DNA of 57,949 bases from a virus: positions 1 to 57,949 of the IMG/VR virus record IMGVR_UViG_3300045391_002368, one strand, 5' to 3'. Of this stretch, positions 998 to 42,511 are shown one piece after another. Position 1 is the stretch's first letter. Every line of letters begins with the position of its first letter. The notes beneath the pieces were generated by a model that saw nothing but the letters and a program-made list of their open reading frames with translations, was not told the DNA's origin and searched no databases. Made by a program: the position numbers and the translations under genes.

Positions 998-2238
998 TAC
1001 TGGTATTCCTGCCACTCGACCTGAGCCCAGGCAGCTGTGCCGCCGGCTGTCGATCTAGCCGCAACGACTAGAGTATCCTGTACGGATCCAGCGATATCGA
1101 GGCCGAGAGCAATCAGTTCTAGAGCGGCAATTACCTCGTCGCTGACCACCCCAGTCAGGGTGGAGCTTGCCGGCACATAGAATTCCCGCAACTTGATCCC
1201 CCCGGACACTGCAGTTGCCGTCGTGTCGTATTCTACCGCTGAGTATGTCCCAGCGGAGGTGAAGGAAGCACCAGTGAGCGTGGGGTTTAGATAGAGGGCA
1301 ACATAGATCAGGTTCTGGTTTGCGGCAACCTGAACTGAGCGAGGAACAATACTGATACGATTTGTCCGGCCATTGAAGGTTGACTTCGGACGAATCGCAA
1401 TGAGAGGTAAGATAGTATTACCGACGGTCGTGGAGGTAGCTACAGTAGACGCAGTGAAGATGTATGGGGCAGAGATACTATCCGAGGATTCTTTCTGGTA
1501 TGCGAAACAGACCAGGTCGAGAGTTGTCGAACTTGCTGCTGTTCCCGTGTTGGTTAGCTCGACTCGAAGCGGCAGGGAGGGGGTGCGCATGAAGGGAACA
1601 GCGGAGGTATTGGCAGCATTGATAGAATGGCAGTAGATAATCCGACCGTTGTACAGGATACCGAAGCGGATCCTGCCGGCTCCATGCCACAGGAAATCGA
1701 TGACATAGAGGTTGTGTTTGCTCGTATCGAGAGTTATCCCACTCGGACCCGTGCCATCGAGCTTATCGATATTCCAGGAAGACTGTGCAGTCGCCGTGTC
1801 TACTGGAGAACCGGAGGTATTCGACCGCACTACTGCCGAGATGCTGGAGGCTCCGAACTCGAAGAACAGCCCGTTATTGGCGTCGAAGTATCCCGCCCTC
1901 TTTCTGGTATTCGCCTTAGCCGCCCCGATGTTACCACTGATAGTGACAATGTAGCTTCGGCCTGGGTTGTAGCGGAAGTAGCGCTTAGTCTGGACAGTAG
2001 CCGAATCGGAGGAGGACGTGGTAGTGGTCAGGCGGAGAGAGGAGGTATCGAGGTTGGAAGCGATAGTGGCGCTGCCCGTGACTGCTGTATTTGCTAGCAG
2101 AGCATGGTCAGTGTGAGCGAAGTAGAGCGACTCGACGAGCGATGAGTCAGATACTCGAATACGACCGAAGGCATCTATCTGAGAGCCATCGGCGATCTCG
2201 ATATCATTAGCATCATTGAAGGATAGGTTAGCGCCCAT
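997..2238 (-). CDS. Virion structural protein, beta-rich and Ser/Thr-rich. Possibly a receptor-binding or fibre-like protein.
   Basis: 413-aa ORF containing RYFRYNPGRS...GYFDANNGLFFEF...WNIDKLDGTGPSG...FLWHGAGRIRFG, which looks jelly-roll-like. The function is inferred from composition and context only. Confidence 0.55.
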   Translation of the reverse strand: MGANLSFNDANDIEIADGSQIDAFGRIRVSDSSLVESLYFAHTDHALLANTAVTGSATIASNLDTSSLRLTTTTSSSDSATVQTKRYFRYNPGRSYIVTISGNIGAAKANTRKRAGYFDANNGLFFEFGASSISAVVRSNTSGSPVDTATAQSSWNIDKLDGTGPSGITLDTSKHNLYVIDFLWHGAGRIRFGILYNGRIIYCHSINAANTSAVPFMRTPSLPLRVELTNTGTAASSTTLDLVCFAYQKESSDSISAPYIFTASTVATSTTVGNTILPLIAIRPKSTFNGRTNRISIVPRSVQVAANQNLIYVALYLNPTLTGASFTSAGTYSAVEYDTTATAVSGGIKLREFYVPASSTLTGVVSDEVIAALELIALGLDIAGSVQDTLVVAARSTAGGTAAWAQVEWQEYQ

Positions 2239-2514
2239 TTACTTCTTCTTGCGCTTGCCGCCACCACCCGTAGAGGGCAGCGGTCCCATGCTCTTCACCC
2301 GCATCGCCTGCTCGGCGGGAGCAGCGACTGCTGTCGTTGCTTCGGAAGCACGCAGCTTACCAGCAAGCTCATTGGCCAGGCCTCCGACCCATACCCGAAC
2401 CTTGACAAGCTCTTCGGCATCTGCAGCACTGAGGTCCCATCTGCCCGTGCTCAGCAGGCGGATGAGTGCAATACATCGTTTGCCGTCCTCATTAGTTGCT
2501 TCTAGTATGCGCAT
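2239..2514 (-). CDS. Small protein with a Gly/Lys C-terminal tail (GGGGKRKKK).
   Basis: 91-aa ORF abutting the next gene (TAAATG). Confidence 0.55.
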   Translation of the reverse strand: MRILEATNEDGKRCIALIRLLSTGRWDLSAADAEELVKVRVWVGGLANELAGKLRASEATTAVAAPAEQAMRVKSMGPLPSTGGGGKRKKK

Positions 2515-2517
2515 AGT

Positions 2518-2558
2518 AGAAAGGCCCTCCTGGTACTAGGATAGCCACCAGAAGGGCC
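2518..2558 (-). terminator. Intrinsic-terminator-like or SD-sequestering hairpin between 2576..3565 and 2239..2514.
   Basis: On the minus strand: GGCCCTTCTGGT-12 nt-ACCAGGAGGGCC, a 12-bp stem with one G.U pair, followed by TTTCT. The 3' arm contains the AGGAGG Shine-Dalgarno of the next gene. Confidence 0.45.
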
Positions 2559-2575
2559 ACCTGTCAACTGTGCTA

Positions 2576-3565
2576 TTACGCCATCTGGAGGATATTAGCG
2601 TTCTGAGTACCCGAGGCTACCACACCGTAGACATCGACCGCCGGACCAACTTCCAGTTCCATGAACGACGCTTTCGGAACCTCGATGCCAGTCGTAGCGC
2701 CAGTGTTCGTGACCGTGGCACTACCAACCCAGATCGACGCACTACCAGCATTCTGAATCATCAGAGTCTTGCGGTTAGCGAGTGGGGTGGTCGGCAGCTT
2801 CGTGGCCGTGGTGGCGACAGCAATCTGTTGTTGGAGGATACTGCCGTTGGCAATATCGACCACCTTGAGAGAGCCTTCCGACCAGGTCAGAAGGGACGTA
2901 TAGTCGCCATCGGCGGCATTGCTACCCTGGGAATCCTTGCGGACACCGAGAGCCTGGATGCCCTGATCACCACTGGAGTGCGCTGCATCCTCAGCCTTCG
3001 AGAGCGCCGAGAGCGTCGACGAGATGGTGCTGGTGTTGCTAGCCGTGTTGCCCGTGTTGGTGACGATCGTGCTGAGGCTGGAGTTGGCAGTCGTCAGCTG
3101 AGAGTGAGTCGTCGTGTCGAAGACATAGAGCTCACCGAGGTTGTTGCTCTTGAAAGCGCCGTAGTCGCCGTCATTCGAGGTGGATTCGGCCAGCGTGTCC
3201 TGGCGGACGAGCAGCGTGAAGAGACCCGTGTCACCGTCGGTGTGGGGCGCATCTTCCGAGTAGTCGCCAGCGAAGTCGACCGTAGCCGAGACCGGCAGCT
3301 CACCGGAAGCATTGAGCGTGAACGGGACCCAGTTGCCATTGGTATCAATGGCACCCATGCTCATCAGATAGTCTACGCCAGCGGAATAGGCTGAGCCATC
3401 GAGATGAGATGAAATGTCGTTGCTATCGAGACGCTGGGTAGCACCGATAGTGGTCGACGTGAGGAGAGCTCCAGCTGCATCCGTTAGGTATGCTGCGATG
3501 GAGTGGCCGTCGGCCAGACTCGCCGTATTGACCTGGATGTTGTGGAGGCCGAGATTCATACCCAT
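2576..3565 (-). CDS. Structural protein. Its C-terminal ~75-aa beta domain is paralogous to the C-terminus of 3915..4547.
   Basis: 329-aa ORF with an AAGGAG RBS. C-terminus: NRKTLMIQNAGSASIWVGS...VDVYGVV. Confidence 0.6.
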   Translation of the reverse strand: MGMNLGLHNIQVNTASLADGHSIAAYLTDAAGALLTSTTIGATQRLDSNDISSHLDGSAYSAGVDYLMSMGAIDTNGNWVPFTLNASGELPVSATVDFAGDYSEDAPHTDGDTGLFTLLVRQDTLAESTSNDGDYGAFKSNNLGELYVFDTTTHSQLTTANSSLSTIVTNTGNTASNTSTISSTLSALSKAEDAAHSSGDQGIQALGVRKDSQGSNAADGDYTSLLTWSEGSLKVVDIANGSILQQQIAVATTATKLPTTPLANRKTLMIQNAGSASIWVGSATVTNTGATTGIEVPKASFMELEVGPAVDVYGVVASGTQNANILQMA

Positions 3566-3582
3566 CGTGTAGGTACTCCTTG

Positions 3583-3918
3583 TTAGATCCAGTACCAGAT
3601 CTCTGCCACCTGGGCAGCGAGATCCGACTGGAAGAAGAGGTCTAGAGAGGCAGAGAGGGACAGATCACTCTCTGACGCATAGCAATACCGGGGGATCGTA
3701 TAGTAGAGAGTCGAGGACTGCCCGGCTACGTATGCGATCTGTATTCGGCCCGATCCTCGAAGCTTGATGGCATACTGCTTCGTGTTAGTGGGCAGAGTGA
3801 ACGAGTACTCTGTGCCTGCCATCGGCATACTGACATTGGCTACCTGGGGATTAGTAGCACCAGTAATCTGGATAGTGGTGGTTACTCCTCCACTACCTGC
3901 CGGTGTGAAGGCACTCAT
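3583..3918 (-). CDS. Small structural protein consisting of the same beta-domain class alone.
   Basis: 111-aa ORF with an ATGA overlap to the upstream gene. Contains KQYAIKLRGSGRIQIAYVAG. Confidence 0.55.
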   Translation of the reverse strand: MSAFTPAGSGGVTTTIQITGATNPQVANVSMPMAGTEYSFTLPTNTKQYAIKLRGSGRIQIAYVAGQSSTLYYTIPRYCYASESDLSLSASLDLFFQSDLAAQVAEIWYWI

Positions 3919-12216: not shown

Positions 12217-14496
12217 ATGTCAGATGATTCTCTCGTTACAACTGAGGCAGGTAAGCCCGAGTGGAAGCGGGTGCTCATACCGGGACGACATACGCCGGCT
12301 CGCACCGGAAGGTATTTCCAGCGTCATGCAAACTACCAGGATCTCCAGCATATCCTACCGGCAGTAGCCCGATCGGAATTCGTCGCCGTCGACTTCGAGA
12401 CCAGGGGCGGTGACTATTCCGAGGGTCTCTCCATCGTCGGTCTGGGCCTGGCCTGGGACAGCGGCTCGTGCTACCTCGATTGGGGTAGTCTCTATGCCGG
12501 ATCCCAGAGTCAGGTCCGGACTGCCCTCCTCTCCCACAAGGGACTGCTGGCGCACAATGTCTACTTCGACGGCGGGGTGATGCGCACCTGCTGGGGTCAG
12601 CACGGGCAGTGGGCAGCCTGCACCTTCTCCCTATACAAGATGCTGGCCAACGAGGGCTGGCCCGGACAGCGTCACGGTCTCAAGGAAGCGATGGTCGATG
12701 TACTCCAGTGGGAGAACGCCAATGAGGACGAGCTCGAATACTGGCTCATCACGAATGGGTGGTACCGGGGCACTCGTCTCAAGGATGCATCCCCAGCGAA
12801 GTTAGACCTACTAGCACGGGAGAAGAAACTGTCTGCTGACAAGGGCCAGCTGTGGAGAGCCCCTGCACAGATACTCGGGCAGTACTGCGTACTCGACGCC
12901 GAGGCCTGCTACCTACTCTACACAGAGCACCTAATGCCTGTACTTGCAGAGCGGTTTACAGATACCGGATTTTCCAAGTGGTTTACAGAATCCTGGATGC
13001 ACTCGATCCGGGTGCACATAGACCAGAAGATCCATGGTATCTGTGTCGACCGCATCGGTCTTCTCGACAGGCAGCAGCATCTCGGGGATCAGATCGAGGA
13101 TCTCTCCGTAGAAATACGGACCCACGAGGAGGTGGCTCCGCACATCGCCACTATCGAGACGGAGCTTCTCTCCGAACTCCTGGCCAAGGAACCCGAGCAG
13201 TACCTCAGGCAGAAGCCTGTCCCACCGGAGCCTCCTCGCTACCGGAAGAATGGATCTATCTCGAAGGTCTGGCAGCGCTGGCAGGAGAACCTCTCGAAGT
13301 ACCAGACGAGAACCCTCTCGAAGAACTGGGAGAACTGGCACGGGCGCCTCCTCCGGGCACGTGAGGGGAAAGACCCTGCGTACCGAATGAACTTCCAGTC
13401 TGACCACCATCTGCGTCGTCTCTTCTACGAGCTGATGGGTAAGCCGGTGCGCACCTACACGGATGCCGGGCTGCCGGGTACTGGCGTGAAGGCGCTCAAG
13501 AATCTCGGACCGGTGGGCCAGCTCCTGATAGAGAGGTCCTGGGCAGAGAAGGAACTCGGCTATATCACAGACTATATCGAGAGAAGTGAGGCACGGGGAA
13601 CTATCCACCCCTCCTTCCGTATGCCCGGAACTAAGACTGGACGGCTCTCCTCTTCGGGCCCGAACATGCAGCAGATCCCGAAGTCGATGGCAGTGATGAG
13701 TCTCTTCGTTGCGAGACCTGGGCGGCTGTTCGTCGATCTCGACTTCTCCGCACTCGAACCAGTGGTGGCTACCGAGTTCTCCGGAGACGAGAACATGCGT
13801 CGCATCTATGCAGATGGAGCTCCCCCCAATGACATCTACCTCTATGTGGCGGCTCACATTCCGGGGATGGCGGAAGAGATCCGTGCGACTGGCTATGATC
13901 CGAAAGCACCAACAGCTGAGACTCTGGCGAAGGCGAAGAAGGAATGCAAGAAGACGAGGTCGATAGCGAAGACCGTCGTCCTCGCCTGTCAGTACGGCGC
14001 CGGAGTGAAGAAGATACTAGAGACACTAGAGACAGACAACGTGTTCCTTCCCGAGGAGGAGGTAGCGAAGATCCACTCCGGGTACTGGAAACTATTCAGT
14101 GGAGTACGGGAGTTCCGGTTCGACCTAGAGAGACAGTGGAAGCGCAATGGGGGCTACCTACTCAATGGTCTGGGTAGGCCCATGTGTGTCACCGAGGACT
14201 ACAAGCACGACTGTCTCAACCGCTTCATCCAGTCGACTGGACACGACATTCTGGTGGAGTACATTCGAATCCTCACGAACAATCTCGATGCTGCAGGCCT
14301 AGACTGGGATCCTCTCGTCATCGACTGGCACGATGCTGCAGCTGTCGAGGTTGCAGAGGATCAGCTGGAGAGAACAGTGGAAGTGTACAAGGACTCGCTC
14401 GACGATCTCAATAGGCATCTGGGTGGGAGCATAACGCTCAAGGGCACGCCGTCCTGGGGTAGGACAATGGCCTCGATAAAAGAGCCAGAGGAGTAA
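12217..14496 (+). CDS. Family A (T7/Pol I-like) DNA polymerase with a 3'-5' exonuclease domain.
   Basis: VAVDFETRG (Exo I), KTGRLSSSGPNMQQIP, RSIAKTVVLACQYGAG (motif B) and VIDWHDAAAVEV (motif C). Confidence 0.9.
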   Translation: MSDDSLVTTEAGKPEWKRVLIPGRHTPARTGRYFQRHANYQDLQHILPAVARSEFVAVDFETRGGDYSEGLSIVGLGLAWDSGSCYLDWGSLYAGSQSQVRTALLSHKGLLAHNVYFDGGVMRTCWGQHGQWAACTFSLYKMLANEGWPGQRHGLKEAMVDVLQWENANEDELEYWLITNGWYRGTRLKDASPAKLDLLAREKKLSADKGQLWRAPAQILGQYCVLDAEACYLLYTEHLMPVLAERFTDTGFSKWFTESWMHSIRVHIDQKIHGICVDRIGLLDRQQHLGDQIEDLSVEIRTHEEVAPHIATIETELLSELLAKEPEQYLRQKPVPPEPPRYRKNGSISKVWQRWQENLSKYQTRTLSKNWENWHGRLLRAREGKDPAYRMNFQSDHHLRRLFYELMGKPVRTYTDAGLPGTGVKALKNLGPVGQLLIERSWAEKELGYITDYIERSEARGTIHPSFRMPGTKTGRLSSSGPNMQQIPKSMAVMSLFVARPGRLFVDLDFSALEPVVATEFSGDENMRRIYADGAPPNDIYLYVAAHIPGMAEEIRATGYDPKAPTAETLAKAKKECKKTRSIAKTVVLACQYGAGVKKILETLETDNVFLPEEEVAKIHSGYWKLFSGVREFRFDLERQWKRNGGYLLNGLGRPMCVTEDYKHDCLNRFIQSTGHDILVEYIRILTNNLDAAGLDWDPLVIDWHDAAAVEVAEDQLERTVEVYKDSLDDLNRHLGGSITLKGTPSWGRTMASIKEPEE

Positions 14497-15005
14497 TGTT
14501 CGTGGGAACTCGAAGGAGAAAGCTAGAGATAGAGACTACTGGATTTCCGGGAATGAGTAAGCACCCATTGTATCTTGTATGGTATAATATGCTCCGACGC
14601 TGCTATGATAAACAGAATAGCTACTATAGGGGGTACGGGGGTAGGGGTATTCGGGTCTGTCCGCAGTGGTTTGATTTCGGTACCTTTCTCCGGGATATGG
14701 GCGAGAAGCCTGGTCCGGATTACGAGCTGGACCGAAAGGATAACAATGGAAACTACGAACCGGAAAACGTCAGATGGGCAACTCCCTCACAGAATCGGAG
14801 AAATAGACGTCCCTACGGGAAATCGAAGTATAGGGGAGTATGCTACTTAGGGAAGTACATATACGCTAGACTATACTTATCAACTGAATGTAAATTTCTA
14901 GGCTATTTTCCAACAGAGGAGGAAGCAGCCCTCGCTTTCAATAAGGCAGCCATCGAATACTTCGGTGAGGATTGTGGTATGCTGAACGAGGTACCCGAGA
15001 AATGA
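14496..15005 (+). CDS. HNH homing endonuclease with an AP2-type DNA-binding domain.
   Basis: DRKDNNGNYEPENVRWATPSQNRRN and YRGV...EEEAALAFNKAAIEYFGE. The GC content is visibly lower than in the flanking polymerase gene. Confidence 0.8.
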   Translation: MFVGTRRRKLEIETTGFPGMSKHPLYLVWYNMLRRCYDKQNSYYRGYGGRGIRVCPQWFDFGTFLRDMGEKPGPDYELDRKDNNGNYEPENVRWATPSQNRRNRRPYGKSKYRGVCYLGKYIYARLYLSTECKFLGYFPTEEEAALAFNKAAIEYFGEDCGMLNEVPEK

Positions 15006-17823: not shown

Positions 17824-18341
17824 GTATGCGCATCGGGGTACTGCTAGTACTGGCGGGAATGGCGGGGGGTTACTACGTTCGAGAATGGACGTTCGATATG
17901 CCCGAGCCTGAGGTCCGAACCATTACCGTGGAGAAGCGAGTGGAGGTTGCCGGAGCCGAACGTATCGTCTTCCGGGACCGAGTGATAGAGGTCGAGAAGG
18001 AGACACATCCAGATGGGACCGTCGTCGAACACACCACCACCCACGAACAGGAACATGAGAAAGAAGAGACCACGACTGTCAGTGAGAAGGTGGCTACCAG
18101 TACGGCGACGTCGACTTCGACTACGCCCGATAGTTCTCTGGCAGATACACTGAAGGCGAGGCCCGAATACTCGGTCAGTGTCGGATACCGCCAGCATCTC
18201 TCACTGGATAGCGAGTGGAAACCAGACTGGTCGAAGGTCGAGGTCGGAGTAGGAAGGCGCCTCATCGGGGATATCTGGGGAGAGGCGAGTTATCATCCCG
18301 GTACGAATACCGGTACAATAGGAGTACGCTGTGAGTTCTGA
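17820..18341 (+). CDS. Signal-sequence protein with a Thr/Glu-rich linker and a beta-strand C-terminus ending in Phe (OMP-like beta-signal).
   Basis: MSMRIGVLLVLAGMAGG at the N-terminus; ...YSVSVGYRQ...VEVGVGRR...GTIGVRCEF at the C-terminus. ATGA overlap with the upstream gene. Confidence 0.5.
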   Translation: MSMRIGVLLVLAGMAGGYYVREWTFDMPEPEVRTITVEKRVEVAGAERIVFRDRVIEVEKETHPDGTVVEHTTTHEQEHEKEETTTVSEKVATSTATSTSTTPDSSLADTLKARPEYSVSVGYRQHLSLDSEWKPDWSKVEVGVGRRLIGDIWGEASYHPGTNTGTIGVRCEF

Positions 18342-18693
18342 TCCAGACAAGAACGGAACGAACTCTGTTCGGACCTACACTGAACTAGTCAACCATACGA
18401 AGAATAAGAACCTGATAGACTTCCATCAGTTACTCAATGCAGCTCTCGGCCTGGCGGGTGAGGCAGGCGAGTTCGCCGATCTGGTGAAGAAGCACGCCTT
18501 CCAGGGACACGAGCTCGATCGAGATAAGGTCGTGAAAGAGCTCGGAGACGTACGGTACTACCTCGAACTAGCCTGCATCACGTTAGGTATTACTATTACC
18601 GAAGTAGAGGAAACCAATAAGGATAAGTTACTGAAGAGGTATCCGAACGGTTTCACAGTAGAAGCGAGTATCCGGCGTGCTGACACGAAATGA
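18331..18693 (+). CDS. mazG: MazG-type nucleoside triphosphate pyrophosphohydrolase.
   Basis: AALGLAGEAGEFADLVKK and ELGDVRYYLE, matching the EXXE...EXXD metal-binding motifs. Confidence 0.8.
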   Translation: MSSDPDKNGTNSVRTYTELVNHTKNKNLIDFHQLLNAALGLAGEAGEFADLVKKHAFQGHELDRDKVVKELGDVRYYLELACITLGITITEVEETNKDKLLKRYPNGFTVEASIRRADTK

Positions 18694-18700
18694 TTCACTG

Positions 18701-19051
18701 GTGTTCTTCCTGCAGTTACTTCAGGAAGATAAGATTCGATATGATCCCGATACAGGATTGTTCACTCGCTGGTGGGAATCTAGACGGGGCTGGATAGAGC
18801 CAGTGCCCTTCGGTAAGAAATCTCCAAATGGATACATATATCTACATTCTATGTGAGGGAGCCTGAATATGTCAGCCAGCGAATGGGCTTACAACAAGAA
18901 TCCACACCTAGACGAATACGAGATTCGGCGTCTCTTCCTCTTGCTGCTCGCTGAACTAGGGCTTGGAGTGGAGTCAAGGCAGGTTGAGGAAGACATCGGA
19001 CCACGAATCTTCAGCTACACCGAGTACCGCATTGCTCGGAGGAAGGTATGA
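18701..19051 (+). pseudogene. Decayed HNH-type homing endonuclease remnant, interrupted by an in-frame TGA at 18854-18856 and fused to a degenerate MazG-like segment.
   Basis: IRYDPDTGLFTRWWESRRGWIEPVPFGKKSPNGYIYLHSM* resembles the N-terminal region of phage HNH endonucleases. The same frame continues into ORF 18869..19051. The region is AT-rich. Confidence 0.4.
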
Positions 19052-19097
19052 CTTTTGGGACGCCTTCTAACTAGAGGATCCAGGAGGAAAGGGATTG

Positions 19098-19229
19098 CTC
19101 GCTGAACTGGCATGTATTACACTGGGGGTTCCACTCACCGAAGTGGAAGAGAAGAACATCGAGAAGCTACTACAGAGGTACCCGAATGGATTCTCAGCTG
19201 AAGCTAGTGTCGGACGGAAAGTTCTCTGA
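19098..19229 (+). pseudogene. Ghost copy of the MazG 3' end (44 codons, no start codon), overlapping the RNR start in another frame.
   Basis: [42 protein letters not shown] compared with MazG LELACITLGITITEVEETNKDKLLKRYPNGFTVEASIRRADTK*. Confidence 0.75.
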
Positions 19230-20856
19230 TTTCGCCAGAGCGATCTACGAGCAGAAGTATGCGCACACGACGGCCGACGGCCGGAAAGAAACATGGGAGC
19301 AAACTGCGGCTCGGGTAGCTAGGCATGTGCTCGACGCCGACGGTAAGCCGAAGGTCGATGACCTGACTATACAGGCTGTGTACGAGCTGATTCGGGATCG
19401 GAAGTTCATGCCCGGTGGGCGCTATCTCTATGCAGCGGGGCGTCCCTTCCACCAGACCCAGAACTGTCTCCTCCTGCGTGCAGAAGACAGCCGGGAGGGA
19501 TGGGCCGATCTGATGCAGAAGGCGACGATGGCTCTCATGACAGGTGCAGGTATCGGCGTAGACTACTCGGCTATCAGACCGGAGGGGGCACCCATCTCCC
19601 GTACGGGCGGTACCTGCACCGGGCCCCTCGCACTCATGCAGATGGTCAACGAGGCGGGCCGGCACATCATGCAGGGCGGTGCTCGCCGGTCCGCTATCTG
19701 GGCGGGTCTCCGCTGGAACCATCCGGACGTGAGGCGCTTCATCGACCTGAAGGACTGGAGTCCGGAGATCCGGGCAGCGAAGGAGAAGGACTACAATGCA
19801 CCAGCTCCCATGGATGGGACGAATATCAGTGTCATACTCGATGCCGATTTCTTTCGGGAATACAACCAGGGGAATCCGTATGCGAAGGACGTCTACTGGC
19901 ATGTAGTCTGGAACATGCTCTCGACAGCGGAACCTGGCTTCTCTGTCGACTTCGACAACCCGAGAGAATCCCTGAGGAATGCGTGCACGGAGGTAGTCAG
20001 TGAGGATGACTCCGACATTTGTAATCTCGGGTCTATCAATATGGCTCGCATTGGAACTCTTTCAGAGTTCTCTCGGATTGTGGAGCTTGGTACTATCTTT
20101 CTACTTGCTGGTACTCTCTATAGTCATGTTCCTTATAGCAGAGTAGCAGATATCCGTACGAAGAACCGCAGGCTAGGGCTCGGTCTGATGGGCATCCACG
20201 AGTGGTTATTGCAACGGGGGAAGAAGTATGGTCCGGATTCCGAACTTGCCAGCTGGCTTGAAACCTATCGAGAAGTGTCTACGAGAACTGCGCAGAGAGT
20301 TGCAGAGGATTGGGGCATCAGTTGCCCAGTTGCAGTCCGAGCTATCGCACCAACCGGGACCATCGGCATCGTCGCTGAGACCACGACTGGCATCGAACCG
20401 ATCTTCTGTGTCGCCTACCGTCGGCGGTACAAGGGGGCGGACGGCCACACAACCAATTACCAGTATGTCGTCGACCCGACGGCGAAGAGACTCATCGAGC
20501 AAGGCACGCCCCCGGAACTAGTCGAGGATTCCTACACCCTCGCAGCTAGTCCGGAGAGGCGAGTGGAGTTCCAGGCCTGGGTCCAGCAGTATGTGGATCA
20601 GGCTATCAGCTCGACCATCAACCTGCCCGAATGGGGTAGCGAACTCAATAGCGAACTCACTGTAGAGAAGTTCGGTGAGATGCTGATGCAGTACCTTCCG
20701 AGGCTGCGGGGTATCACAGCCTATCCCGATGGTTCCCGGGGTGGCCAACCTCTGGTGCGGGTAAAGTACGAGACTGCTATCAGTCACGAGGGTCAGGTAT
20801 TCGTAGAGCAGGCGGATTCCTGCGACATAACTAAGGGAGGTTCCTGTGGCAGTTAG
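19186..20856 (+). CDS. Ribonucleotide reductase catalytic protein. It is probably class II, since no beta-subunit gene is present.
   Basis: [26 protein letters not shown] (the N-x-C-x-E active site) and ICNLGSINM. The class assignment is an inference. Confidence 0.8.
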
Positions 20857-21559
20857 TCTAGTTACCACTACTCCCGAGGCAGAGAAACTACTGGCCTACA
20901 TGGCAAGGGTCTCCTCGTCTCATCAGGACAATCCAGAGTATTCGAAACTCCTTCGGTACCTCATCGAGCACCAGCACTGGTCGCCGTTCGAGATGGTCCA
21001 CATGGTAGTGGAGATCGAGACGAGTAGGGCCATCGCTGCCCAGATCCTGAGACACAGGAGCTTCTCCTTCCAGGAGTTCTCGCAGAGGTATGCTGAGGTG
21101 CCGAACTCCGGTCCCCCCTCCCTACTAGTTGGTAGAATGCAGTCGGAGAAGAACAGGCAGTCGTCGGGACGGGAGTTACCCGAGAAATGCCAGGAACACT
21201 GGCTTCGCCTCCAGGAAACTATCTTCCAGGTTACCAGAGAAGCATACTGCTCGGCTCTCGATAGTGGTGTGGCGAAGGAGCAGGCACGGATGCTGCTTCC
21301 TCTGGCTACTCCTACTAGGCTCTACATGGCCGGCTCCGTCAGGAGCTGGATCCACTATCTCCACCTCCGTACCCAGGAGGATACCCAGAAGGAGCACAGG
21401 GATATCGCTCTCGCTGTCCAGAGAATATTCATCCAGCAATTCCCCTGTACCTCCGAGGCACTCGGATGGTCGCTACAGAAATCCGAATTCGATGCGACAC
21501 TAGATACTGTGATAGCTGAACACTCAGATGCGCTAGCTAACCTAGTAGAAGGAGACTGA
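20846..21559 (+). CDS. thyX: Flavin-dependent thymidylate synthase.
   Basis: [16 protein letters not shown], matching the RHRxxSxxxxSxR ThyX motif. Confidence 0.85.
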
Positions 21560-36839: not shown

Positions 36840-39800
36840 TTACTTGCTCCCCGTCTGCTGGGCAGAGGTGATACCTTGCGTAGATAGCCCATCGATTCTA
36901 CAGTCGATTCCGGAGATATCCAGAGGCTCGTCGATGCCCGAGTTCTCGATCTCTATCGAGAAGTAGACCCCCCTCCGACGGTCTGTGGTATGTACTATCG
37001 TGTAGATAGCCTGATTGGGGACGTCGTCTATGCCGCTGGTAGTTCTGTTGTGCGGGATGATGATAGGCGTAGTATCCCGATATTCCTCGGAAGTATCTGT
37101 CGATAGCCGCAGTACCGTGCCGGTATTGCGTACATCTGTACGGTACTTCGTGATGATCCTATCGAGGATCTTCCGGATGCCTGCATTACCGAAGTCGAGA
37201 TCTCTAGTCCGCATGCGGGTAGTGATGGCAGAGTCGTCGTCTCGGTAGTTGGTGTCCCGCTCTTCATCGCTCTGGAGGCGCCTCACAGATAGCACTCTGC
37301 CGCCCGTAGTTGCCATGTAGGCGTCCTGGCCGAGGTTGGCCCACCCGGTACTGGGGTGGTTATCGTAACGAGTCCAGGCGCCCTGCTTGCCCTCGTCTTC
37401 CCCGGTGTGGTTGTAGACGAATACCTCGGAGTTCTCGGACCCCGAGTCAGTGATCGGAACCGATAGCTTGTAGGAGCGACCCACCCCGTAGTGGTGGCCC
37501 TGGGCGATACTGAGTTCGGTCTTCTCGACTCGGTCCCAGTTTCTCTCCATGTATTTCCCGAGATACTGTATGGACAGGTCCCGTCTCAGGCAGTACATGC
37601 CGGACTCATTGGCGAACATGATCCCCTTCTTCGAGGACGAGACAGAGTAGGGGGCTGTGCAGCCGAGCCCTTCGGTCTCGATCCTCTGGATGGGATTCCT
37701 GCCGTTTCTCTTCTCATTGAGGTCGACTAGATAGATCGAGTTCTGCTTGAAGCAGACGAGGACCGTGGACTGCTGGGCAGCCCCGAAGGTGGCCTCGCCG
37801 AAGAATGGAATGATGGCGGTGATGTCCTGACCATCCGCCGGATTCACGTCGATGGCAGAGTCGGAGTCCGTCGCCAGAACAGCAGTGGGGGAATCGAATA
37901 TCTCCGGGTAGTTCTCGTAGCTGGCCAGCACCCGGCTCGGATACACTCGGGTGATGGCCGAGATCTCGGCTGAGGCAGCACGGCGGATATCATTCACGAA
38001 TACGTCGAACCCGCTGATCGAGGACGGAAGAACCAGTTCGAGGGTCGTGGAGTCAGCTCTCGGCTGGCGAACGACCAGACGTCCTGCCTTCCCAGAGTCG
38101 TTGCCCCCGGTTGCAGTCAGCCAGGGCACGAATGTGGACATCCCCGTGATGGTGGTGTCCGTCATCCTCATCACTGCATTGATGGCCATAGACATACGAC
38201 GCATCGAATCGAAAAGAGCTGAGTTGTTCAGTAGTAAGAACGAGTTACCATTCACCATCCCGAGGTTGCCATCTAGCCCGAGAAGTACAGGGACATCGGT
38301 GGGGTCTGTGGCTACGACATACTTATTAGGGTACGTACCGGGGTCAGCGACACCGGGGTAGTTGATGGTTACGGTAGTTCCTGCTAGATCCGCAATCTGC
38401 CACCAACCACTGAGCACTAGATTCTTACCGGTAGTATAGACCTGATCGTAAGTCAGATAGATCCAGTCGCCTGGAGCCGTAGCCGCTGGGAGATTCGTAG
38501 CCACGAACTTGAACTTATTGGCGGTACTGAAATCGAAGGTCCCCGCATCATCCGTGGTTCCGCTCACGAACTGGAAGGTAACCCTACTGACCATATCCGT
38601 AGTAGTACCGGTGTCGGAACTATCTCGACGGAATAGGAACTTCTTCCCATTGAGGGTGGAGTTTACGACTGTTCCGTCTCCACTCAGCTGGATGTCTAGT
38701 TGTGGGTAGTCAGTGATATTAGCTAGGACGAGACTATTTCCGATGGAGGTTACATATTTCGATCGGAGCGGTTCCTGCCAGCCGACCCCGAGCTCGGATC
38801 CCTTGAGGGCAGTATTGACGGGATCGAGATCGATGAGAGCATCATCCGAGAACACGTCGGTGTAGAGGAAGTATCCCTTCCCATTGTCGAATCCCACCTG
38901 GGCTACGCCCGGTAGCTTATAGAAGGGAGCTGATAGAGACTGCTTCGTGCGGTAGACCTGGACATCTATCCTGTCGTAGTCGTAGACGTCCCAGGCTGGG
39001 AACCCGACTCCCCGGATCTGGACTGCTGCCGAAGCGCCGAGCTGTACCACATGATCCTGATAGCCAGTCACTGCGGATGCTACAATATTGTTATTGGCAT
39101 CCACTGCATTGAGCCGGAAATAGTACCGGAACGTGGCTATCTCGCTGATGGTTCCAGTCGATGCTACTGAACTACTCAGGGCCCGATCGACGAGGACATA
39201 GTAGCTGGTCCCATCGTCTGTGTATTCTCGGATCGTATAGCTCTTCGTATCTCCTTGGATTAGCACCGTAGACCCGACCGGAATGACGCCTGCATCTCCT
39301 GCAGAAATAGTCAGTCGGCCTAGAGCGGCATCTTTCGGGTTGTAGGAGATACTGCGGACATCTATCTGGAGTTTCGTAGAAGCGCCAATATTCTGTATGA
39401 GGAATAGGCCGGGTTGCCACGGGAAGAGTCCGGCACGATAGTTATTTACCCCGTCGTACTTGTAAGCCTCATCTTCGCTGTTCTCTAGATAGAGGTTGTC
39501 CCCCACCATCGAGGACCTGAGAAAGGCCTGATCTCCATACGAGCTACTGTCGAAGTACCGGGTATGGGTTGTCGGCGTCAGATTGAAGGAGTCATCTGGA
39601 GCCTCGATCGAAATCCAGCGGGCTGCCGTGTAGTAGTAGGACGAATCGTCGGTGCTATCTTCCCACTCTATTTCCTCGTCTAGTTCCACCGTCTTACCGG
39701 CGAGTGTGGCTCCGGAGAAACCTGCCGATTCTGTGGAATCGAAGGTCATTTCGGTAGTTGAGGTAATCGCCGTGATAGTCTGTACGCCAGTATAGGCCCC

Positions 39801-42038
39801 AGCCTGGAGGAGAAGGATCTTCCCTCCTACTCGGAAGGCGGAAGTATCCCCGGACCCTAGCGTTATTGTCGCTTCCTCGGCAGCTGTGTCTACTGTGATG
39901 TCCACAGTGAGATCGCTATTCGGATTGATCGCCAGGACTCGAAGGAGTCTATCGAGAGTCGAGGAGGCAAGCATGTCTCCTCGTACTAGATTCGTGACCG
40001 ACGGAGTGGCGCTCGGTTGGGCGCTGCGCATCGGAATCACGGATGAAGTACGAGCAGACGGAGTGAGGACCCCACCCGGAACTGAGACTAGATCCACTAC
40101 CCCATCAATGACCGTACTGGTTCCACTGCTGGAGAGAGTGGTACAGATGAGCGTGTCCCCGAATGCACTACACTTCACCGTGTCACCGGGGATGAGTGTC
40201 GAATCGGTCAGCCACACCATATGATCTGTGAATATGCCCCCATCTCCCTGGCAGCCAGTATCATCCCAATCCGACGAGGATACCGAATCATTCTCTACAT
40301 AGATGTCGATAGAGTCTGTGCCGTCGGTAATTTGCCTGATACGGAATGTTCCGTTGTGACGAACGAAGGGCATATTCCGGAGGGTCAGCCAGTCTTCGAG
40401 TTCCGACGTCGTAGAGATGACCGCCGATAGGGTAGTCGGAGTTCCGGTAGAATCGAGAATCTGCTTATTGGGCAGCGAGATAGTATACTTCGTATATCCG
40501 GTACCGGAGTCGTAAGCAGCGGCAGTGACTACAGCCCAGTTAGTAGCAGATAGATCTGCCGTGACATAGCCTCTAGTCCTGGCCGGAGTATCCCCGGTTT
40601 CCCAGAATAGCGGCCCTAGGGTCCTGTTGCCCGCTGTGCGGAGGAGCAGGTCGGGATAGAGGAGGGCATAGTCGTAGGTGGACGCTGCTGTCTCGTAGTC
40701 CTCGGCAGCGAACAGGTTGCCACCTAGACCCGATACGAGACGGTGCTCTCCGGCAGCTCGGTAGCTATCGATGTGGGTAGTCCACCCGGACCTGCCGGAC
40801 TTCTGAGCCCCATAGATCTCGGAGTGATCGAGGCCCCAGACCGTCAGCTGGGGAGCAGTGTCTGTCGCATTGGTAGTAACTGAGGAGTCAGTGACACACA
40901 GCTGATTACTGCGGATGACCCCATAGTCGTAGTACACATAGACGCTACGGGCACTCGGAGAGGCATTCGTGAACGAGAGGGTCGCCTCCTGGGTAGTGTC
41001 GTCGTAGGAGATAGAATCCGGAATGACGAGTTCCTTATCCCCACCTGGAGTTGTTTCGAGATACACCCCATAGAAGATCCAGGGACTTGTTAGGTCGGAG
41101 ATGAGGATCGTTCCGGTGGAGCTAGCTGCCACCGATCCGAGTTCCGTATTGGTTACCGGAGCCGCCTCTAGGATCACGTAGTACGTTCCAGCAGTACCAC
41201 TCGTGATAGTTACATCAACTCCACCATTCGAGTGGATGACGACAGAATCCGGAGTACTCAACTCCCGAGTAGTCCCGTTATCTTTCTGTACCTGGCATAG
41301 GATATTGAAGTTGCTGAGGGAATGTGTCCCCGCAGATATAGACAGTGTCTCGCTACCAGTACCGCCGTGAGAGAAGGTACCAATGTAGGTACGTCCGGCC
41401 TCAGCAGTCTGGTCCTTGTAGAACACGAACGCATCTATATCGGCGCCCGTATTGTTCTGGTAGGTAACGGAGAGATCCTTCGAGGACTCATCCACCGAGA
41501 TAGTAGGTAGGACCTGGCTATTCGAACTGTTCCCCGAACTGGTAGATTCCACTAGGCCTGCGAACAGGTTCGTGGTAGCGATTCCGTGCTCGTCGGAGGT
41601 GATGGTGAGGGTATGGCTGGCGCCATCCCCAGTTAGTACTTTCCGAGTCGGAATGCTGATGGCGGAGTAGTAGTGAGCTGTATCCCCGGCAGTAGTGAAC
41701 GGACCACCAGAGGAGATCGAGCTGCTGCGTCCGTAGACAACTATCGGAGTCGAGCGGATACCACTGAGATCCACTACGGTATCCGAGAGGGATATCGAGG
41801 AGTCGAGAGTGAGGCAGACCTGGTTAGTACTGTCGATATACTGGAGACTACTCACCCGGACTGGCAGGTTACCTGCATAGCCCTGGAGGCCCGGACGTTT
41901 CCTCGGCCTCTTCTCGATGATGTCCACATTGAGCAGATCCTTCGCAAACCCGGGATCGATCTGGTTCTCTGCAGAACGTGCGTCGATTCCGAATGAGAAG
42001 TCTGATTCTGGACTAATTACGAAGCTAGTATTAGGCAT
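36840..42038 (-). CDS. Giant (1732 aa) tail/nozzle-type structural protein.
   Basis: Largest ORF in the window, beta-rich throughout. It follows the adaptor genes. The function is inferred from size and context. Confidence 0.55.
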   Translation of the reverse strand: MPNTSFVISPESDFSFGIDARSAENQIDPGFAKDLLNVDIIEKRPRKRPGLQGYAGNLPVRVSSLQYIDSTNQVCLTLDSSISLSDTVVDLSGIRSTPIVVYGRSSSISSGGPFTTAGDTAHYYSAISIPTRKVLTGDGASHTLTITSDEHGIATTNLFAGLVESTSSGNSSNSQVLPTISVDESSKDLSVTYQNNTGADIDAFVFYKDQTAEAGRTYIGTFSHGGTGSETLSISAGTHSLSNFNILCQVQKDNGTTRELSTPDSVVIHSNGGVDVTITSGTAGTYYVILEAAPVTNTELGSVAASSTGTILISDLTSPWIFYGVYLETTPGGDKELVIPDSISYDDTTQEATLSFTNASPSARSVYVYYDYGVIRSNQLCVTDSSVTTNATDTAPQLTVWGLDHSEIYGAQKSGRSGWTTHIDSYRAAGEHRLVSGLGGNLFAAEDYETAASTYDYALLYPDLLLRTAGNRTLGPLFWETGDTPARTRGYVTADLSATNWAVVTAAAYDSGTGYTKYTISLPNKQILDSTGTPTTLSAVISTTSELEDWLTLRNMPFVRHNGTFRIRQITDGTDSIDIYVENDSVSSSDWDDTGCQGDGGIFTDHMVWLTDSTLIPGDTVKCSAFGDTLICTTLSSSGTSTVIDGVVDLVSVPGGVLTPSARTSSVIPMRSAQPSATPSVTNLVRGDMLASSTLDRLLRVLAINPNSDLTVDITVDTAAEEATITLGSGDTSAFRVGGKILLLQAGAYTGVQTITAITSTTEMTFDSTESAGFSGATLAGKTVELDEEIEWEDSTDDSSYYYTAARWISIEAPDDSFNLTPTTHTRYFDSSSYGDQAFLRSSMVGDNLYLENSEDEAYKYDGVNNYRAGLFPWQPGLFLIQNIGASTKLQIDVRSISYNPKDAALGRLTISAGDAGVIPVGSTVLIQGDTKSYTIREYTDDGTSYYVLVDRALSSSVASTGTISEIATFRYYFRLNAVDANNNIVASAVTGYQDHVVQLGASAAVQIRGVGFPAWDVYDYDRIDVQVYRTKQSLSAPFYKLPGVAQVGFDNGKGYFLYTDVFSDDALIDLDPVNTALKGSELGVGWQEPLRSKYVTSIGNSLVLANITDYPQLDIQLSGDGTVVNSTLNGKKFLFRRDSSDTGTTTDMVSRVTFQFVSGTTDDAGTFDFSTANKFKFVATNLPAATAPGDWIYLTYDQVYTTGKNLVLSGWWQIADLAGTTVTINYPGVADPGTYPNKYVVATDPTDVPVLLGLDGNLGMVNGNSFLLLNNSALFDSMRRMSMAINAVMRMTDTTITGMSTFVPWLTATGGNDSGKAGRLVVRQPRADSTTLELVLPSSISGFDVFVNDIRRAASAEISAITRVYPSRVLASYENYPEIFDSPTAVLATDSDSAIDVNPADGQDITAIIPFFGEATFGAAQQSTVLVCFKQNSIYLVDLNEKRNGRNPIQRIETEGLGCTAPYSVSSSKKGIMFANESGMYCLRRDLSIQYLGKYMERNWDRVEKTELSIAQGHHYGVGRSYKLSVPITDSGSENSEVFVYNHTGEDEGKQGAWTRYDNHPSTGWANLGQDAYMATTGGRVLSVRRLQSDEERDTNYRDDDSAITTRMRTRDLDFGNAGIRKILDRIITKYRTDVRNTGTVLRLSTDTSEEYRDTTPIIIPHNRTTSGIDDVPNQAIYTIVHTTDRRRGVYFSIEIENSGIDEPLDISGIDCRIDGLSTQGITSAQQTGSK

Positions 42039-42511
42039 AACTGCACATGTCCTTTGTGCAACTTACGATGACACGGAGCACATAACACAGCTATATTTTC
42101 TGGTGTATTATTGTCACAATTGTTGTCGATATGGTGCAAATCTAGGCAATAGTCATGAGCAGAATAGTCAGCAGAGCATATCTCGCATTTCTTTGCCTTA
42201 TGTTCCCAGATCCATTTTCTCAGATTTCTGGATCGATTCGAGTTTCGGTATCGTCTCTGTTTGCGTAGCTGTCGTCTGACAGATTCAGTTCTAGCCGAGT
42301 TAGATCGGCACTCAATACTGCAATATTTCTTATCTGTTCTACTCGGAGAAGCTTCTACTAGCTTTGCACATCCTCGGCAGGTGAACTTAACTCTATTTAG
42401 ATATTGAGTATGATTCTGACACTGTTTCGAACAGAATGTGGCTGTCCCGCTTCTGTGCATTGGAACAGAGAAGGTCGAATTACAGGACTTGCAGATCACT
42501 GAAACTGACAT
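42017..42511 (-). CDS. HNH homing endonuclease.
   Basis: LDLHHIDNNCDNNTPENIAVLCAPCHRKLH plus several CxxC pairs. GC is about 40% by hand count of 100 nt, against about 55-60% in the flanking genes. Confidence 0.85.
   Translation of the reverse strand: MSVSVICKSCNSTFSVPMHRSGTATFCSKQCQNHTQYLNRVKFTCRGCAKLVEASPSRTDKKYCSIECRSNSARTESVRRQLRKQRRYRNSNRSRNLRKWIWEHKAKKCEICSADYSAHDYCLDLHHIDNNCDNNTPENIAVLCAPCHRKLHKGHVQLCLILAS

Follow-up and report, generated by a model that had tools for sequence, protein, structure and literature searches.

What has left a second, diverged copy of the end of a gene lodged across the start of its neighbour? The question is raised by a locus in a viral DNA of 57,949 nucleotides (nt) (IMG/VR record IMGVR_UViG_3300045391_002368; this whole stretch is referred to as the window), in which an intact gene for a MazG-like protein is followed by an apparent fragment of a homing endonuclease gene, by a small open reading frame (ORF) and by a redundant copy of the MazG 3' end, which runs into the gene for a ribonucleotide reductase (RNR). 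The 3' end of the intact gene is called tail 1 below, and the redundant copy is called the ghost. We consider it probable that the locus is the scar of a homing-endonuclease invasion at a phage MazG-RNR junction, in which a diverged MazG 3' end was co-imported and the resident tail was left stranded. The features concerned lie at 18331-20856:

18331..18693, plus strand: intact gene for a MazG-like nucleoside triphosphate (NTP) pyrophosphohydrolase, 120 residues, GTG start (PF03819, phrog_229 and homologue alignment)
18565..18693, plus strand: tail 1, the one of the two MazG 3' ends that is in use, reading ELACITLGITITEVEE...RRADTK and a stop (profile match)
18677..18856, plus strand: ORF59, probable remnant of an HNH_3/AP2-type homing endonuclease, N-terminal module only (phrog_99, tblastn)
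18705..18729, no strand assigned: near-perfect palindrome TCTTCCTGCAGT-T-ACTTCAGGAAGA (repeat search, 11/12 complementary)
18869..19051, plus strand: ORF60, gene for a small protein of 60 residues, ATG after GAGGGAG (HMMER homologue P0123)
18945..18957, plus strand: 13-mer TGCTCGCTGAACT, first copy, inside ORF60, where it reads LLAEL
19052..19103, plus strand: spacer and right-hand junction, with AGGAGGA at 19082-19088, TTG at 19095 and the second 13-mer copy at 19096-19108
19104..19229, plus strand: the ghost, a probably displaced MazG 3' end lacking the first ~79 codons (profile and phrog_229 match)
19186..20856, plus strand: class II-like RNR gene, starting inside the ghost (Pfam)

Two MazG 3' ends and what lies between them

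The intact gene matches Pfam PF03819 at 1.1e-8, above the family cut-off, and phrog_229 at 1e-36. A MazG profile was built from 119 homologues with the window's own protein left out; against it the gene scores 169 bits (profile positions 10-120), the domain being complete and having the metal-binding EAGE helix at its N-terminus, and in a full-length alignment its C-terminus coincides with the ends of 30 homologues. Tail 1 matches the profile with 57 bits at positions 76-120, and the ghost with 46 bits at positions 80-118 (E 1e-14 among 56 translated pieces), the ghost also matching phrog_229 at 1.1e-8. Apart from the tails, nothing in 18301-19300 scored above zero bits. From ELACITLG on, 18565-18693 and 19104-19229 align without a gap and 80 of 126 nt are identical (63%), which bears out the claim of an initial annotation of the window that the MazG 3' end recurs about 400 nt downstream. 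Among the 42 codons compared, 18 carry synonymous and 15 non-synonymous differences, and the remaining 9 are the same; in the protein, 27 of 38-39 residues are identical, with no insertion, deletion or stop. Upstream of 19104, nt identity to MazG is at the background level of 27-37% and no similarity is found in any frame; the MazG-body side of the join between body and tail is the sequence ...GTACGGTACTAC. The ghost has no full-length MazG domain and is, as judged from these alignments, a homologous fragment and not a MazG gene. No second MazG tail was found in other loci, the window being unique in this respect among 38 loci with MazG.

An artefact of assembly can be dismissed as the source of this arrangement, which independent assemblies reproduce: a contig of 11.8 kb from another run has the same gene order and spacing, and two further short contigs agree with the window at 100% identity wherever they cover it. 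The order of tail 1 (18565-18693), ORF59 (18677-18856) and the ghost (19104-19229) is the anatomy of a C-terminal duplication.

To characterize the history of the two tails, their divergence was compared with that expected of neutral drift. Non-synonymous divergence (dN) is 0.19, synonymous divergence (dS) is saturated, and third codon positions are identical in 14 of 39 cases. When tail 1 was randomly mutated to the observed nt divergence, 14 ± 2 residues remained identical compared with the 27 observed, a number that the simulation never reached (P < 5e-5 for neutral drift), and the mutants kept an open frame only 26% of the time. The ghost, moreover, keeps all eight near-invariant tail residues of the MazG family. 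Both tails diverged under purifying selection as functional alleles. Because the protein is conserved beyond what random mutation would leave, nearly all of the divergence must have accrued while both sequences served as MazG ends, in different genomes; and because the ghost shows no decay, its displacement would be young in comparison with the alleles themselves. The earlier description of the ghost as a diverged allele, and not a fresh duplication, is thus upheld.

Between the tails, ORF59 ends in ...QEDKIRYDPDTGLFTRWWESRRGWIEPVPFGKKSPNGYIYLHSM and a TGA stop at 18854-18856, with an alternative GTG start at 18701; its similarity to other proteins spans 18713-18844. It matches the HNH endonuclease family phrog_99 with an E-value of 0.06 at profile positions 116-151, compared with positions 173-262 for an intact HNH gene at 14496 in the window. 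Its tblastn matches in a phage database have E-values of 0.5-8; among the matches listed, those with annotation are for the most part to HNH or homing endonuclease genes, which come from several unrelated phage groups. The two that were inspected, FelixO1 ORF106 (NP_944978) and S119 orf37, are HNH_3 plus AP2 proteins and match by their N-terminal residues (13-55 and 3-38, respectively), with the Pfam HNH_3 domain just past the match (residues 62-104 and 48-94); in FelixO1 ORF106 the similarity stops 7 residues short of the HNH_3 start. In a reverse tblastn search, two HNH proteins matched the locus by their N-terminal residues only. ORF59 has 14 invariant columns in common with the FelixO1 and S119 proteins and, like them, carries the N-terminal motif YDP[DE]TG.FTW ... 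G ... GYIYI, at 42-45% identity over 44-45 residues, a similarity that is not significant database-wide. Unlike them, it stops ahead of HNH_3 and is without the AP2 domain.

The HNH catalytic core and motif are absent from all six frames of 18670-19240. Pfam HNH_3 matched neither ORF59 nor the product of reading through its stop, a word search of 5.8 billion proteins returned no ORF59 homologue, NCBIfam and PDB sequence searches with ORF59, ORF60 and the read-through product returned nothing, and ORF59 showed no similarity to the HNH genes of three related loci (L090, L094 and L095). On the pattern of its matches, and partly on the context in relatives described below, we are fairly confident that ORF59 represents the 5'-terminal ~150 nt of a gene for an HNH_3-type endonuclease; this gene would once have encoded an active enzyme. 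The initial annotation had placed an HNH-like fragment at 18701-18853, for which the phrog_99 match and the mostly HNH tblastn matches provide weak confirmation, and it had rightly seen this fragment end at a TGA in frame with ORF60.

Three copies or so of the MazG 3' end had been counted in the initial annotation, the middle one in the segment that is now ORF60, and this count did not survive. ORF60 scores -2 bits against the MazG profile. An exhaustive HMMER search over 1.84 billion representatives returned one true homologue, P0123 (62 residues, 50% identity over the whole length, E 6.9e-9), which is encoded on a contig (L093) with a membrane ORF and a pyrimidine-dimer glycosylase gene, and with no MazG, HNH or RNR gene nearby. 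Given the profile score and a homologue of its own in an unrelated context, ORF60 was rejected as a third, decayed MazG tail. In the comparison with P0123, 28 of 60 residues are identical, 19 of them with synonymous codon changes, and the third position is the least conserved. The motif LLAELGLGVESRQVEED of ORF60 has a counterpart, LLGELGYAVEYRQTEED, in P0123 and therefore belongs to the ORF60 family. ORF60 is an independent small gene under purifying selection, and the frame that it shares with ORF59 across the TGA is taken as coincidence. Another match, P0124 (588 residues, with tandem repeats of ~52 residues; E 2e-5), was judged spurious and repeat-driven.

The 13-mer TGCTCGCTGAACT that had been reported as common to 18945-18957 and 19096-19108 was found there in exact copies. 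A local score at least as high as that between ORF60 and the ghost junction was obtained in 5 of 1000 shuffles, and it is the 13-mer that makes ORF60 resemble the ghost in DNA sequence (semi-global score 9.5 vs 2.6 ± 1.5, reached by 1 of 1537 background windows). The second copy straddles the 5' junction of the ghost, with eight bases outside the MazG homology. The 13-mer may mark a microhomology used in joining, or the truncated start of an ORF60-like gene in the incoming DNA.

Some further observations were made around the remnant. The two short contigs mentioned above (L087 from Logan SRR8549365, and L097/L098 from JGI 3300031716; the two runs may be the same sample) start at positions equivalent to 17879 and 17673 of the window, and both stop exactly at 18852, two bases ahead of the TGA that closes the HNH remnant. 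This shared end may be an assembly-graph branch, caused by a co-existing variant that differs downstream. The palindrome at 18705-18729 lies where the HNH remnant starts and begins 12 nt past the stop codon of MazG. A 15-nt direct repeat (18420-18434, CTTCCATCAGTTACT; 18706-18720, CTTCCTGCAGTTACT; 13/15 identical) encodes F(H/L)QLL in both places, within the MazG body and where ORF59 begins; this repeat is probably due to chance. A scan for promoters and terminators gave nothing above shuffle expectation.

The junction in relatives and the provenance of the tails

The boundary between MazG and RNR was compared among relatives. In L092, whose MazG (P0005) has 60% identity to that of the window, the MazG stop overlaps the RNR ATG as TGATG, i.e., the site is empty, and in another seven IMG/VR loci RNR immediately follows MazG. 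In L095, the order is MazG, an intact HNH_3 gene for 189 residues (HNH_3 at 1e-7), 72 nt and RNR, with no ghost; the MazG protein of this locus (P0003) has one of the two bodies most similar to the MazG body of the window. The called GTG start of the HNH gene in L095 is 17 nt inside the MazG end, the same codon as the called start of ORF59, and between the two sequences no relation is detectable (score 25 vs 23 ± 4 for shuffles). Intact genes with HNH and AP2 domains flank RNR in L035, L054 and L057. This intergenic site beside a conserved gene is thus occupied sporadically among relatives: it is empty in L092, occupied in L095 and holds a remnant in the window. From the empty and occupied versions we infer that the MazG-RNR boundary is a site occupied independently by different HNH genes, the window containing a decayed occupant. 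The initial annotation had proposed looking for relatives with no insert or with an intact endonuclease; both kinds were found, the intact endonuclease being of another lineage than the remnant.

Neither a donor nor an uninvaded ancestor that was close enough was found by blastn and tblastn against 50,697 phage records, by IMG/VR scans with MazG and RNR, by a search of 5.8 billion proteins with MazG and ORF59, by an exact 30-mer scan of metagenome and viral contigs, or by cluster membership. Exact copies of the window sequence aside, the highest identity was 67%, which was the value both for the best MazG homologue in the 5.8 billion proteins and for the best RNR in IMG/VR.

The question of which tail is foreign was approached through composition. 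The segment 18562-18861 has a GC content of 45%, within the lowest 0.9% of 300-nt windows, which is in part a matter of amino-acid composition. Codon usage was normalised for amino acids and scored against 26 long native genes, with native 42-codon windows as the reference for tail 1. In this analysis tail 1 lies at the 1.3rd percentile and the HNH remnant at the 1.2nd, compared with the 39th for the MazG body, the 14th for the ghost and the 15th for ORF60. Among leucine codons, TTA makes up 15 of 1094 in native genes, compared with 2 of 5 in tail 1 (P 0.002) and 1 of 5 in the HNH remnant; the two HNH genes that are intact in the window have 2 of 12 and 2 of 11, and TTA is absent from the 7 leucine codons of the ghost and the 8 of ORF60. 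The MazG body, the ghost and RNR are compositionally native-like, and because the ghost overlaps the RNR start, the ghost and RNR belong together. On balance, codon usage lends modest support to the suggestion that tail 1 travelled with the endonuclease gene and is the imported copy; this is the weakest link of the argument. Alignment of the tails with the MazG genes of relatives, which the initial annotation had put forward as a way to identify the native one, was possible with 116 homologues and showed no congruence with the MazG body (Spearman 0.04-0.05).

The two intact HNH genes of the window have their own settings. The first (14496-15005, plus strand, 169 residues, phrog_374 at 3e-47) contains 2 rare TTA codons and lies where GC content dips locally, its start falling on the stop codon of the gene for DNA polymerase A (12217-14496). 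The second (42017-42511, minus strand, 164 residues, phrog_1271 at 4e-17) is found in the kilobase with the lowest GC content of the window (47.6%) and lies immediately upstream of a gene for 1732 residues (36840-42038). Pfam at E 0.01 recognised neither of them, and no duplicated ends of neighbouring genes, the polymerase gene included, were found beside either.

Further observations concern RNR and its neighbours. The RNR of the window matches Pfam Ribonuc_red_lgC at 7e-49 and Ribonuc_red_lgN at 6e-11, has 67% identity to IMG/VR relatives, and is followed with an 11-nt overlap by ThyX (20846-21559; Pfam Thy1 at 6e-47). In L096 (370-804), the closest MazG overall (P0002) is followed directly by ThyX and not by RNR; as read from gene order, the MazG/RNR/ThyX cluster is reshuffled among relatives. 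In L092 the RNR (1291-3867, 858 residues) has an insertion of ~310 residues between the N-terminal domain (3-76) and the barrel (from 393), starting right after HQTQNC with FSATTRVLTDRG; the insertion has an intein-like look, and Pfam found no intein in it at E 0.001. In L095, a hydrophobic ORF of 22 codons (MTALCILLGVLLIASLVSLMKE) lies at 1182-1253 between the HNH gene and RNR, and AAGGAGG inside the MazG end could be the ribosome-binding site of the HNH gene.

Explanations for the locus

The explanation that we favour starts from what is observed at the locus and in relatives: the MazG end is duplicated and its two copies evolved under selection, no HNH core is present, ORF60 is a gene in its own right, and relatives have the site empty or occupied. 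From these observations we infer the direction of transfer and the mode of joining. In the ancestor, MazG would have ended in the ghost sequence, its 3' end overlapping the RNR start. A free-standing HNH_3-type endonuclease gene would have entered from a diverged phage, in which the HNH gene directly followed MazG, when the endonuclease cut the resident MazG end or its vicinity and the diverged donor served as the template for repair. On the left, the repair would have been resolved inside MazG just past the conserved block coding for KELGDVRYY, so that the donor's tail 1 was copied in frame. On the right, tail 1, the endonuclease gene, ORF60 and the spacer would have been joined at about 19096-19104 non-homologously or by microhomology, stranding the resident tail ahead of RNR; the tails, with 63% nt identity, would have been too diverged to pair. 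The endonuclease gene would later have lost everything from the HNH motif on, probably in one deletion, with ~50 N-terminal codons left.

Several points weigh against this explanation. No single E-value for the HNH assignment of ORF59 reaches significance, and with the best MazG homologue at only 67% identity, the donor and the uninvaded ancestor were not found. The enzyme in L095 is unrelated to the remnant, and the site is occupied there without a duplication. The GC content at third codon positions (GC3) is 0.488 in both tails. The proposal of the initial annotation that a foreign MazG end displaced the resident one holds in part: tail 1 shares rare TTA codons and codon usage with the HNH remnant, but the paired codon-usage test between tail 1 and the ghost is not significant, and the signal in tail 1 is largely that of its two TTA codons. 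The native-like composition of ORF60 is awkward for part of an imported segment, and the 13-mer common to ORF60 and the ghost junction is not accounted for.

Several of these points suit the opposite direction of transfer, in which tail 1 is the resident and the ghost the immigrant. An RNR module would then have arrived by illegitimate recombination from a phage in which MazG abuts RNR, with 42 MazG codons hitch-hiking; the ancestor would already have had the order MazG with tail 1, HNH and ORF60, and the left end of the import would have fallen inside the donor's MazG. The ghost and the RNR start overlap physically and so share a history, as this alternative would have it. L095 has MazG, HNH and RNR without a duplication, and its MazG tail is nearer to tail 1 (25/41) than to the ghost (20/38); the GC3 of the ghost is lower than that of RNR (0.653), and ORF60 is native-like in composition. 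However, the TTA codons and the codon-usage percentile place tail 1 with the HNH genes and not with the MazG body, and RNR is compositionally native. In addition, the illegitimate event would be unmotivated, whereas an endonuclease-made double-strand break explains recombination at this site. We regard import of the ghost as unlikely.

It is similarly doubtful that the duplicated tail was part of the mobile unit, i.e., that the endonuclease gene carries a heavily recoded 3' end for its target gene. Were this so, insertion within a conserved gene would keep the gene functional while destroying, or immunising, the unit's own cleavage site. This would be a third phage solution beside introns and inteins, and would extend to phages a strategy so far mainly described in fungal mitochondria; otherwise the locus is an example and not a principle. 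The cassette of mobA and a ribosomal bypass in T4 gene 60 is an analogue for such a unit.

A different possibility, which fits either history, is that the ghost has been kept for use. The RNR ATG at 19186 lies inside the ghost, whose stop is at 19227-19229, and the overlap with the RNR start codon is as the initial annotation had it. The same annotation had called the ghost start-less; this is qualified by the TTG at 19095, 6 nt behind the Shine-Dalgarno-like AGGAGGA at 19082-19088, which opens an ORF of 44 codons (19095-19229) separated from ORF60 by a spacer of 44 nt. If translated, this ORF would restore to RNR the translational coupling that MazG formerly supplied. Its frame is open and ends 44 nt past the RNR ATG (23 nt past an alternative GTG at 19207), and the MazG stop and RNR start overlap in L092. 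On the other hand, AGGAGG occurs 65 times in the window, mostly within genes, and a Shine-Dalgarno sequence before the ghost is not distinctive in this GA-rich genome. Coupling would also select for an open frame and not for fully conserved MazG residues, which recency explains equally well. We therefore hold retention for coupling to be rather improbable.

Far less probable is a tandem duplication of the MazG end in situ, after which the unused copy diverged with no mobile element involved. The closest relative of each tail is indeed the other tail (27/38 residues identical, compared with at most 26/41 to any database protein). But synonymous sites are saturated, and an unused copy could not have drifted so far while its frame stayed open and 27/39 residues were kept. 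The family consensus is, if anything, better matched by the ghost than by tail 1, the ghost being the nearer of the two to 82 of 116 homologues, and the endonuclease remnant lies between the copies. Finally, the idea that the ~540 nt between the MazG body and the ghost are a self-splicing intron or other removable element, with the ghost as the true 3' exon, accords with an intact ghost and with the frequent presence of homing endonuclease genes in group I introns, but it is scarcely credible, given that tail 1 completes MazG in frame at the normal family length and that ORF60 within the segment is an independent conserved gene; a group I intron or other structured RNA was rejected, as no Rfam covariance model matched 18000-19600 at E up to 1.

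Significance and comparison with known systems

The locus is a clean recombination scar but not an unusual one; such scars are familiar from fungal mitochondria, and phage cases have been described less often. As an example of the cycle of invasion and decay it would not surprise a specialist; a limited search of the phage literature, not a survey, found no description of a stranded duplicate gene end. If the locus arose by endonuclease invasion, as we favour, it records, in a form that can be dated, gene mosaicism driven by an endonuclease in an uncultured lineage of phages, for which empty, occupied and decayed versions of one site are available for comparison. It would also indicate that repair of the homing type can strand the end of a gene if donor and recipient differ too much for the event to be resolved by homology. 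Such ends can pass for small genes in annotation: here, the 44-codon ORF before RNR and ORF59 are probably relics, and ORF60 is a real small gene.

Endonuclease-associated C-terminal duplications are known from fungal mitochondria, e.g., in atp6 and cob of Endoconidiophora resinifera (PMC6279837). The order there is the same as here, with a complete gene, endonuclease ORFs that are often degenerate, and then a partial C-terminal copy, whereas the host here is a phage and the remnant is probably of HNH_3 type instead of GIY-YIG or LAGLIDADG (PMC6279837). Also unlike the fungal cases, only ~42 codons are duplicated here and the displaced end overlaps the start of the next gene. In atp6 of Allomyces macrogynus, as Paquin et al. 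are said to have described in 1994, the in-frame copy is foreign and the resident end has been displaced downstream.

Among phages, there is a likeness to the free-standing HNH genes that neighbour nucleotide-metabolism genes in T4-like phages, such as mobE between nrdA and nrdB (PMC2790892; reviewed in PMC2988022): in both cases an HNH-family gene is found in an intergenic site beside an RNR gene, sporadically among relatives. The free-standing HNH genes of T4-like phages move by double-strand break repair with co-conversion of flanking DNA, which is also what is proposed here. Unlike mobE, the occupant of the window has lost its catalytic domain, and a duplicated gene end has been left, which ordinary homologous co-conversion does not leave. 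Phage genes that are split by endonuclease insertion, such as Aeh1 nrdA with mobE and T4 gene 39/60 with mobA (PMC2988022), likewise have a selfish endonuclease at or inside a conserved coding region whose function is kept. The split genes of Aeh1 and T4, however, consist of two functional pieces with no redundancy, whereas in the window MazG is whole and is accompanied by one redundant fragment.

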